Shown piece by piece: positions 3,677 through 4,003 of a stretch of DNA of 4,346 nt. Below the pieces are notes generated by a model. It was given only the letters and a program-made list of their open reading frames with translations, did not search any database and was not told the origin of the DNA. The DNA is from a virus. Taxonomy: Duplodnaviria; Heunggongvirae; Uroviricota; Caudoviricetes. The stretch lies in IMG/VR virus record IMGVR_UViG_2711768005_000011; one strand, 5' to 3'. The position numbers were made by a program, and so were the translations under genes. Every line of letters starts with the position of its first letter. Position 1 is the stretch's first letter.

Positions 3677-3916
3677 GTGCTGATTGGCTATGTAAGGGTA
3701 TCAACAAATGACCAGAATACAGACCTGCAACGAAACGCTCTTGTTTGTGCAGGATATGAACAAATATTTGAAGATAAATTAAGCGGAACAAGGACAGGCC
3801 GACCTGGATTAAAACGTGCTTTAAAGCGCCTTCAAAAAGGTGACGCACTGGTTGTCTGAAAACTGGACTGACTGGGGCACTGTATGCGGCATCTTGTCGT
3901 GCTGGTGGTGGAAGCC
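3677..3916 (+). pseudogene. pin: Serine DNA invertase (Pin/Gin/Cin/Hin family), N-terminal ~60 codons intact then disrupted by stops
   Basis: GTG at 3677 with GGGAGA at 3663..3668. Reads [60 protein letters not shown], a recognisable invertase N-terminus with the catalytic-Ser region. Then TGA at 3857..3859 where W is expected, KLD, TGA at 3869..3871 where R is expected, and [12 protein letters not shown]. A full-length invertase would be ~190 aa. The ATG at 3653 used by the ORF track has no SD and is probably not the start. Confidence 0.8.
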
Positions 3917-4003
3917 TAGAAAAAGTATCGGGTGTTGCTGAACCGTGTTGATACATCAACTGCACCTGATATTGAGTGGCCTACGAACCCTGTCAGGGAG
4001 TAA
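3917..4003 (+). pseudogene. Remnant of the 3' end of a tail-fibre assembly (tfa) gene, in frame with the invertase fragment
   Basis: Same frame as the pin fragment reads EA, TAG (3917..3919), then [27 protein letters not shown] and TAA (4001..4003). This parallels the C-terminus of the intact Tfa in this window ([25 protein letters not shown]), with the conserved Trp codon replaced by TAG. Confidence 0.5.

Follow-up and report, generated by a model that had tools for sequence, protein, structure and literature searches.

How a DNA invertase gene comes to run, within one reading frame, into the end of a tail fiber assembly (tfa) gene is the question raised by positions 3677-4003 of the DNA studied here. 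The window, that is the whole stretch of 4,346 nucleotides that was analysed, comes from a degraded prophage, of which it forms the tail-fibre end. In our reading, to which we give a probability of about 90%, the frame is a non-functional recombination scar that would have been left by the import of a P2/Mu/e14-type cassette into a lambdoid prophage.

Organization of the window

The window opens on the minus strand with the end of an IS600 element of the IS3 family (1-105), which includes the start of orfA (MSRKTQRYSKEFKA...). Next to it lie, on the plus strand, the 3' end of a tail-fibre variable part, Sv (106-394), and a tfa gene (396-923), and, on the minus strand, tfa' (952-1485) and the alternative variable part Sv' (1488 to about 3596). 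Sv, tfa and tfa' were taken from the list of open reading frames, and both tfa genes match the Pfam family Caudo_TAP with E=1e-34 to 1e-37. Sv' is interrupted by an IS5 element (1787-2982), the terminal inverted repeats of which were located and which is bordered by a TTAG target duplication at 1783-1786 and 2983-2986. Sv, tfa, tfa' and Sv' make up an invertible tail-fibre segment (106-3596) once served by the invertase. The invertase-proximal edge of this segment is marked by a 26-bp, pixR-like crossover site of the Din family (TTCTCGTAAACCGAGGTTTTAGATAA, 3597-3622, plus strand).

The broken frame follows on the plus strand and consists of three pieces. The first part of the invertase pseudogene (3677-3859) has a GTG start, 60 intact codons of the Gin/Pin type and a TGA at codon 61. 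The second part (3868-3908) comprises codons 65-77 with the D-R-L-G-R...HLVVLV region and belongs to another invertase lineage. At 3908-3909, through a hybrid codon 78, it is joined in frame to the 3' remnant of a lambda/Rac-type tfa gene, of which codons 164-194 and the stop are left (3909-4003). The window ends in the 3' part of a convergent class I SAM-dependent methyltransferase gene (4058-4346, minus strand) that runs off its edge.

Between the frame and the methyltransferase gene, a perfect 11-bp inverted repeat with an 11-nt loop (CCGCAGCACGT / ACGTGCTGCGG, 4018-4050, assigned to neither strand) was read from the sequence. It is probably a bidirectional transcription terminator, and it lies inside a block that is 99% identical to cassette-free lambdoid prophages. 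It was missed by a consensus terminator scan because its loop is longer than 8 nt. The only terminator called by that scan in 3500-4346 was rejected, since it coincides with the crossover site, and no promoter was detected in the same interval by the consensus promoter/terminator scan.

Two protein families on one broken frame

Translation of 3653-4003 gives, from the GTG at 3677, 60 Gin/Pin-type codons and then a TGA (codon 61, 3857-3859), at which the open frame closes. Beyond it the same frame reads the residues KLD, a TGA (codon 65, 3869-3871), 15 residues, a TAG (codon 81, 3917-3919), 27 residues and the terminal TAA (4001-4003). A preliminary description of this DNA had reported a Gin/Pin-type N-terminus followed by same-frame stops, and its protein string was reproduced exactly. 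When the frame was submitted to a Pfam profile search with its stops masked, residues 3-83 matched Resolvase (profile positions 2-92 of 145, E=1.6e-19) and residues 80-105 matched Caudo_TAP (profile positions 105-130 of 131, E=2.2e-10). The occurrence of two families on this one frame is far beyond chance.

Neither family is represented by a complete protein. The Resolvase catalytic domain (PF00239, about 145 positions) is incomplete, as its match ends at position 92 and reaches that far only with two stops masked. The catalytic Ser9 motif YVRVS is present, and codons 1-13 are identical to those of intact relatives. An intact invertase relative contains both Resolvase and HTH_7 (residues 138-180, E=4e-13), and HTH_7 was absent from the window frame in the Pfam search. 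On the Tfa side, a full-length Caudo_TAP domain with its own start is absent: tfa codons 1-163 are missing and the TAG at 3917-3919 lies inside what is left. The remnant has retained the conserved Tfa C-terminal motif EAWxxYRVxLxRVDT...WP.

The Tfa-like C-terminus that had been noticed earlier is thus borne out by the Caudo_TAP match, with its beginning moved from about 3920 to 3909, which is 31 codons before the end when the hybrid codon is counted and the terminal stop is excluded. The likeness that had been claimed to the Tfa proteins of the window itself holds at the level of the motif only (14/27 aa, with no DNA repeat). The in-window tfa genes were rejected as the source of the remnant on these same grounds.

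Position and nature of the joint

Five invertases and two intact tfa genes were compared with the window base by base in codon register. Position 3908 matches the invertases only and position 3909 the tfa genes only, and the breakpoint that had been supposed between the two genes is placed by this comparison at 3908|3909. The alignment of the window with invertase genes from intact phages extends from 3838 through 3912 or 3913. The invertase of the vB_EcoM-611R5 type agrees fully with the window over 3885-3908, mismatches it at 3909 and diverges from 3913 onwards. From the other side, the intact tfa genes of PEC165 and WCHEC4533 mismatch the window at 3908, and from 3909 to a point beyond 4030 their only difference from it is a nonsense change at 3918. 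Identity to tfa is 94/95 over 3909-4003 versus 20% over 3850-3908, and identity to the invertases is 27-37% over 3909-3960. The interval 3920-4003, for which a tfa match had been anticipated, lies within the 94/95-identical block.

The joint is in frame and leads from invertase codon 78 to codon 164 of the 194 codons of tfa. The hybrid codon is GTG, in which the G comes from an invertase GAG and the TG from a tfa CTG. Around the joint the parents agree at 7/10 positions (TGGTGGAGGA versus TGTTGCTGGA), a patch that was measured without the exact parental invertase, such that the true microhomology could be longer or shorter; no perfect microhomology is seen at the crossover. The right joint would fit an illegitimate or very-short-homology joining, and the earlier suggestion of such an event is upheld by the partial agreement and by the absence of perfect microhomology at 3908|3909.

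Mosaic structure of the invertase fragment

The invertase fragment itself appears to be composite. Positions 3677-3867 are 97% identical to Mu gin and 95% identical to the invertases of Mu-like and P2-like prophages. Over 3868-3908, identity is only 51% to Mu gin and 51-56% to the Mu/P2-like type, and it reaches 78-85% to a second lineage that reads HLVVLVEEL (611R5, CUWW06 and P2-T22, with 85% for 611R5). Among the genuine changes relative to this second lineage are a TGA in place of AGA/CGN at codon 65 and HC in place of RS at codons 68-69. Judging from these identities, two lineages had already been combined in the invertase piece, with a switch near 3868, before the joint would have formed. 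As 3868-3908 fits the second invertase lineage, part of the apparent decay is therefore an older allele switch.

An intact invertase with the gin-like/611R5-like mosaic was not found, and phage and plasmid searches for a closer parent of 3868-3908 gave nothing above 85% (vB_EcoM-611R5). The top plasmid matches to the stump region are small contigs with the same joint. Inside the stump, the mosaic boundary is located at about 3860-3868, with Mu gin-like DNA before it and vB_EcoM-611R5-like DNA after it. In vB_EcoM-611R5, the gene annotated as 'DNA invertase' (3340-3654) was also observed to be truncated: it encodes 104 aa, diverges after about codon 85 and adjoins an invertible-looking tail-fibre module. 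Truncated invertases next to tail-fibre cassettes may be recurrent.

Origin of the tfa remnant and of the cassette

The intact gene to which 3909-4003 is identical at 94 of 95 positions (99%) is a 585-bp tfa of the lambda/Rac type that encodes 194 aa in PEC165 and WCHEC4533. The nonsense change in the remnant is TGG to TAG at 3917-3919. The earlier proposal that the 5' end of a pin gene had been joined to the 3' end of a tfa gene from a different stf-tfa module agrees with this match. The translation of 4058-4346 is the C-terminus of an EC958 protein, and in RefSeq annotation this methyltransferase is the usual downstream neighbour of intact tfa. In the cassette-free lambdoid prophages PEC165 and WCHEC4533, the order is stf, tfa (585 bp), a small overlapping ORF, the methyltransferase gene and a further tfa remnant.

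The limits of the foreign DNA were seen in AVS0972, a carrier of the same joint. Its positions 813-1768 align to the cassette-free prophages (96% to WCHEC4533; 1134-1768 at 90% to PEC165), its positions 1675-5518 align to a P2-like prophage of strain DFK.1, in the region of the tail-fibre, assembly and invertase genes, and from 5554-5557 onwards it realigns to the cassette-free prophages at 99.3-99.6%. At the left boundary, the lambdoid and P2-like alignments overlap by 94 bp. These alignments show what appears to be the replacement of the stf 3' part and of tfa codons 1-163 of a lambdoid prophage by a P2-type invertible cassette of about 3.85 kb. The tfa remnant would be the resident gene and the invertase-bearing cassette the incomer. 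If the remnant is resident, there is therefore no donor tfa to seek elsewhere in the genome; the donor that had been postulated there is dispensed with, the remnant still having its own methyltransferase gene beside it.

At the end of the EC958 prophage, two more remnants of tail-fibre-assembly/DUF4376 type were observed beyond the methyltransferase gene (7477-8028), before the Rha/ash genes and the split ompW. These extra fibre-assembly remnants speak therefore for repeated turnover of fibre modules.

Distribution and stepwise decay

The joint is widespread among strains. In 5,426 complete E. coli genomes, 589 records from 588 genomes cover at least 80% of 3850-4010, and about 240 genomes match 3400-4346 at about 99.6%; no record in this set covers at least 80% of the whole 4346-bp window. 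The exact 38-nt pattern that spans the joint is held by 30 IMG/VR contigs and gave 0 matches in GTDB species representatives. The joint is strain-level accessory DNA that is missing from the representative genomes. The chromosomal location varies among carriers: the prophage is found at ompW/trpA in EC958, AVS0972 and NCTC86, near bio in E2386, and in a position adjoining potB in E8. In RefSeq the invertase half is recorded as 'recombinase family protein, missing C-terminus' and the tfa half as 'tail fiber assembly protein, missing N-terminus'.

The order of decay was followed in 36 copies, namely the window, five genomes and 30 IMG/VR loci. The joint, the 15-residue stretch after codon 65 (with a G-to-V variant in one group) and the TGA at codon 65 are common to all 36. 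TGG is found at both codon 61 and codon 81 in 14 copies, one copy (L030) combines TGA at codon 61 with TGG at codon 81, and all three stops are present in the 21 others, the window among them. These nested alleles support the order codon 65, then 61, then 81. The point decay that had been proposed to follow the joining stands as far as the nested stops are concerned; much of the divergence of 3868-3908 has to be taken away from it and assigned to the older lineage switch. In one IMG/VR carrier (L016), a further rearrangement has taken away pixR together with about the first 16 codons of the invertase.

A scenario for the scar and its alternatives

Import of the cassette into a lambdoid prophage would account for these data as follows. 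The ancestral prophage would have ended in stf, tfa and the convergent SAM-methyltransferase gene. The imported DNA of about 3.85 kb would have brought the constant end of a fibre gene, pixL, Sv, tfa, tfa', Sv', pixR and the first 232 bp of an invertase gene. The left crossover may have used a patch of similarity between the two fibre genes, and the right one would have been illegitimate, linking invertase codon 78 to tfa codon 164 in frame by chance; the order of events at the two crossovers is one that we infer. The invertase would thereby have been deprived of the second half of its catalytic domain, of its oligomerisation helix and of its HTH DNA-binding domain, and tfa of its first 163 codons. 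Nonsense mutations would then have built up one by one at codons 65, 61 and 81 in a frame that presumably encodes nothing useful. The scar would still keep two elements in cis, the 26-bp crossover site and the 5' coding DNA of the invertase, and in the carriers that retain pixL the segment would flip by means of an invertase supplied in trans by another prophage.

The same joint could in principle arise by a simple deletion in one ancestor, without replacement between two phages, if a cassette with a complete invertase had lain upstream of a complete second stf-tfa module and the DNA from invertase codon 78 to tfa codon 164 had been lost. For such a deletion the two pieces, invertase fragment and tfa remnant, have the required order and a common strand, and the further tfa remnants found downstream of the methyltransferase gene in carriers demonstrate that tandem fibre-module debris exists. 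However, the cassette exactly replaces the stf 3' and tfa 5' parts of the relatives, and resident homology resumes at the matching position of tfa; moreover, none of the genomes inspected has at this site a complete invertase with a full lambda-type stf-tfa downstream of it. We therefore regard deletion as unlikely. Much less probable still is that the invertase made the joint at a secondary ('quasi') crossover site and deleted the intervening DNA. Din-family invertases reportedly use quasi sites (Iida and Hiestand-Nauer 1987, as cited by Forde et al. 2014), but the joint sequence (GTCGTGCTGGTGG|TGGAAGCCTAG) is unlike the 26-bp consensus, the only site match at up to three mismatches being the one at 3597-3622, and a deletion made by the invertase would end at a pix site and not within invertase codon 78. 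A quasi-site origin was rejected, crossover-site likeness being absent on both sides of the joint.

Hardly any credence can be given either to the idea that the frame still yields a functional product, be it an N-terminal invertase peptide of 60-64 aa or a read-through invertase-Tfa fusion. The fusion is in frame and 14 of the 36 carriers have a single stop, the TGA at codon 65; PGAP calls a 64-aa ORF in E8 and E2386, and in RefSeq the peptide is listed for E8 and other strains as an intact 'recombinase family protein'. Yet the nested, accumulating stops have the pattern of neutral decay, the peptide would end before or within the D-R-L-G-R motif without the rest of the Resolvase domain and HTH_7, and the tfa portion amounts to the last 31 of 194 codons. 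A non-functional scar of cassette import is thus the reading that we retain.

Crossover sites and inversion in trans

The 26-bp site at 3597-3622 occurs once in the window, where 0 are expected by chance, and is the sole match at up to three mismatches. A second, inverted site was not found in the window at up to 7 mismatches. The same site is present in EC958, in NCTC86 and in the P2-like prophage, and carriers of the whole segment have an inverted partner; the second site was located in EC958, AVS0972 and two IMG/VR carriers (L039 and L031). It matches the Phi4_3prime site in Table 3 of Forde et al. 2014 (PMC4134206).

The prophage is the same in EC958 and AVS0972, and so are its chromosomal site and the three-stop stump. 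Both flanks are 100% identical between them, and the 3.1 kb that separates the flanks is 99.8% identical but inverted. The inner half-sites TTCTCG and TTCCTG are swapped between pixL and pixR, with the outer halves unmoved, as is characteristic of Din-type strand exchange at the central dinucleotide. Since an identical dead invertase accompanies both orientations and the swapped half-sites, the segment was therefore inverted in trans. Gin, Cin and Pin-type enzymes cross-complement, which accounts for inversion in trans; that the enzyme acting here comes from a co-resident prophage is what we infer.

Both orientations are common, about 240 genomes having the window-type arrangement and 144 the opposite one. 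The split runs within similarly named isolates (U12A versus U13A, U14A and U15A; 4/0 versus 4/1-1 and 4/4), and both half-site states occur among the three-stop copies of the 36-copy set. In one IMG/VR carrier (L018), a different inner half-site was observed at pixR (TTCCCAGAACCC...), which suggests an exchange with another cassette. In the assembly of an E. coli O25b:H4 strain, the chromosome (NZ_CP015085.1) has the window-type orientation and a separate 32.7-kb record (NZ_CP015087.1) the opposite one. A 'spurious contig' of this kind was attributed to a mixed population by Forde et al. 2014 (PMC4134206). With PacBio sequencing of a single EC958 culture these authors recovered the 3106-bp Phi4 segment in either orientation, and the crossover sites that they give are the same as those seen here. 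They call the Phi4 invertase 'severely truncated', the inversion being presumably due to another enzyme in trans.

The stump might be retained in two-site carriers for a putative Fis-dependent enhancer acting in cis, in which case the locus would be a widespread 'orphan' cassette that uses the invertases of co-resident prophages; we put this forward tentatively and lean somewhat against it. A Fis-dependent enhancer is said to reside in the 5' part of the invertase gene of Mu gin, Hin and Cin (Kahmann et al. 1985; Johnson and Simon 1985; both as listed among the references of PMC3798978). The 5' DNA homologous to this enhancer is kept at 97% to Mu gin, and a loose scan for Fis cores gave many candidates and was non-discriminating. 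If the idea were true, the breakpoint at codon 78 would mark the minimum cis-acting unit tolerated by selection. Retention for an enhancer would not cover the window copy, in which pixL is lost.

Fate of the lineage of the window

Three IMG/VR relatives (L019, L027 and L033) are 100% identical to the window from its positions 1, 47 and 19, respectively, through 1786, and 99.9% identical over 2983-4346, and they are devoid of IS5. The closest relatives being without this element, its insertion is therefore recent and specific to the source strain. In L019, unrelated lysis-region genes directly adjoin IS600 on its upstream side, and no second crossover site was found in this relative. In the IS600-free relatives L039 and L031, pixL lies about 600 bp upstream of what corresponds to window position 106. 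The lineage of the window would have lost pixL, the constant fibre part and most of the prophage (in L019, the morphogenesis genes) through an IS600-associated deletion, the loss of pixL being read from the 100%-identical relative L019. With the IS600-associated loss and IS5 in Sv', the window copy of the module is dead.

Comparison with known systems

Prophage Phi4 of EC958 (ST131) has the same type of locus, with the same joint, the three stops and the 26-bp site by the truncated invertase. It is 99.6% identical to the window over 3400-4346, with only 4 differences over 3623-4003. The window differs from it in carrying other Sv/tfa alleles (88-94% identical or without a counterpart), IS5 in Sv' and the IS600-associated loss of the left half. 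In the available parts of Forde et al. 2014 (PLoS One 9:e104400; PMC4134206), the tfa remnant and the breakpoint are unmentioned for Phi4.

The Mu Gin/G, P1 Cin/C and e14 Pin/P segments resemble the window in the order Sv-U / U'-Sv', crossover site and invertase, and the 26-bp site of the window fits the Din-family consensus. Unlike in these systems, the invertase is reduced to a 232-bp stump with three stops and the host element is lambdoid, not Mu, P1, P2 or e14. The Tfa proteins of lambda, Rac and Qin (TfaR/TfaQ-like, 194 aa) resemble the remnant in its 3' end (99%) and in the downstream methyltransferase gene. In contrast to these proteins, the remnant comprises only codons 164-194, contains an internal TAG and is without the start codon and the N-terminal part.

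The feature is an ordinary and widespread pseudogene junction, and the truncated invertase and inversion in trans have already been published for EC958 Phi4. The survival of an invertible segment beyond its own invertase by means of an enzyme supplied in trans is likewise a point already made there for Phi4. What the scar gives is the exact graft point, 3908|3909, of a P2-type invertible host-range cassette on a lambdoid prophage, together with a clean example of stepwise pseudogene decay. In genome annotation, 3677-4003 is best entered as a pair of partial pseudogenes; beyond this its importance is little.

Another annotation deserves mention in the same region. A 45-aa ORF on the plus strand (3976-4113) corresponds to the hypothetical protein WP_001309429.1, which is recorded in many RefSeq genomes. 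Its span takes in the last part of the tfa remnant, the hairpin and the 3' end of the methyltransferase gene that converges on them. This ORF has the look of an artefact of annotation and should be treated with suspicion.
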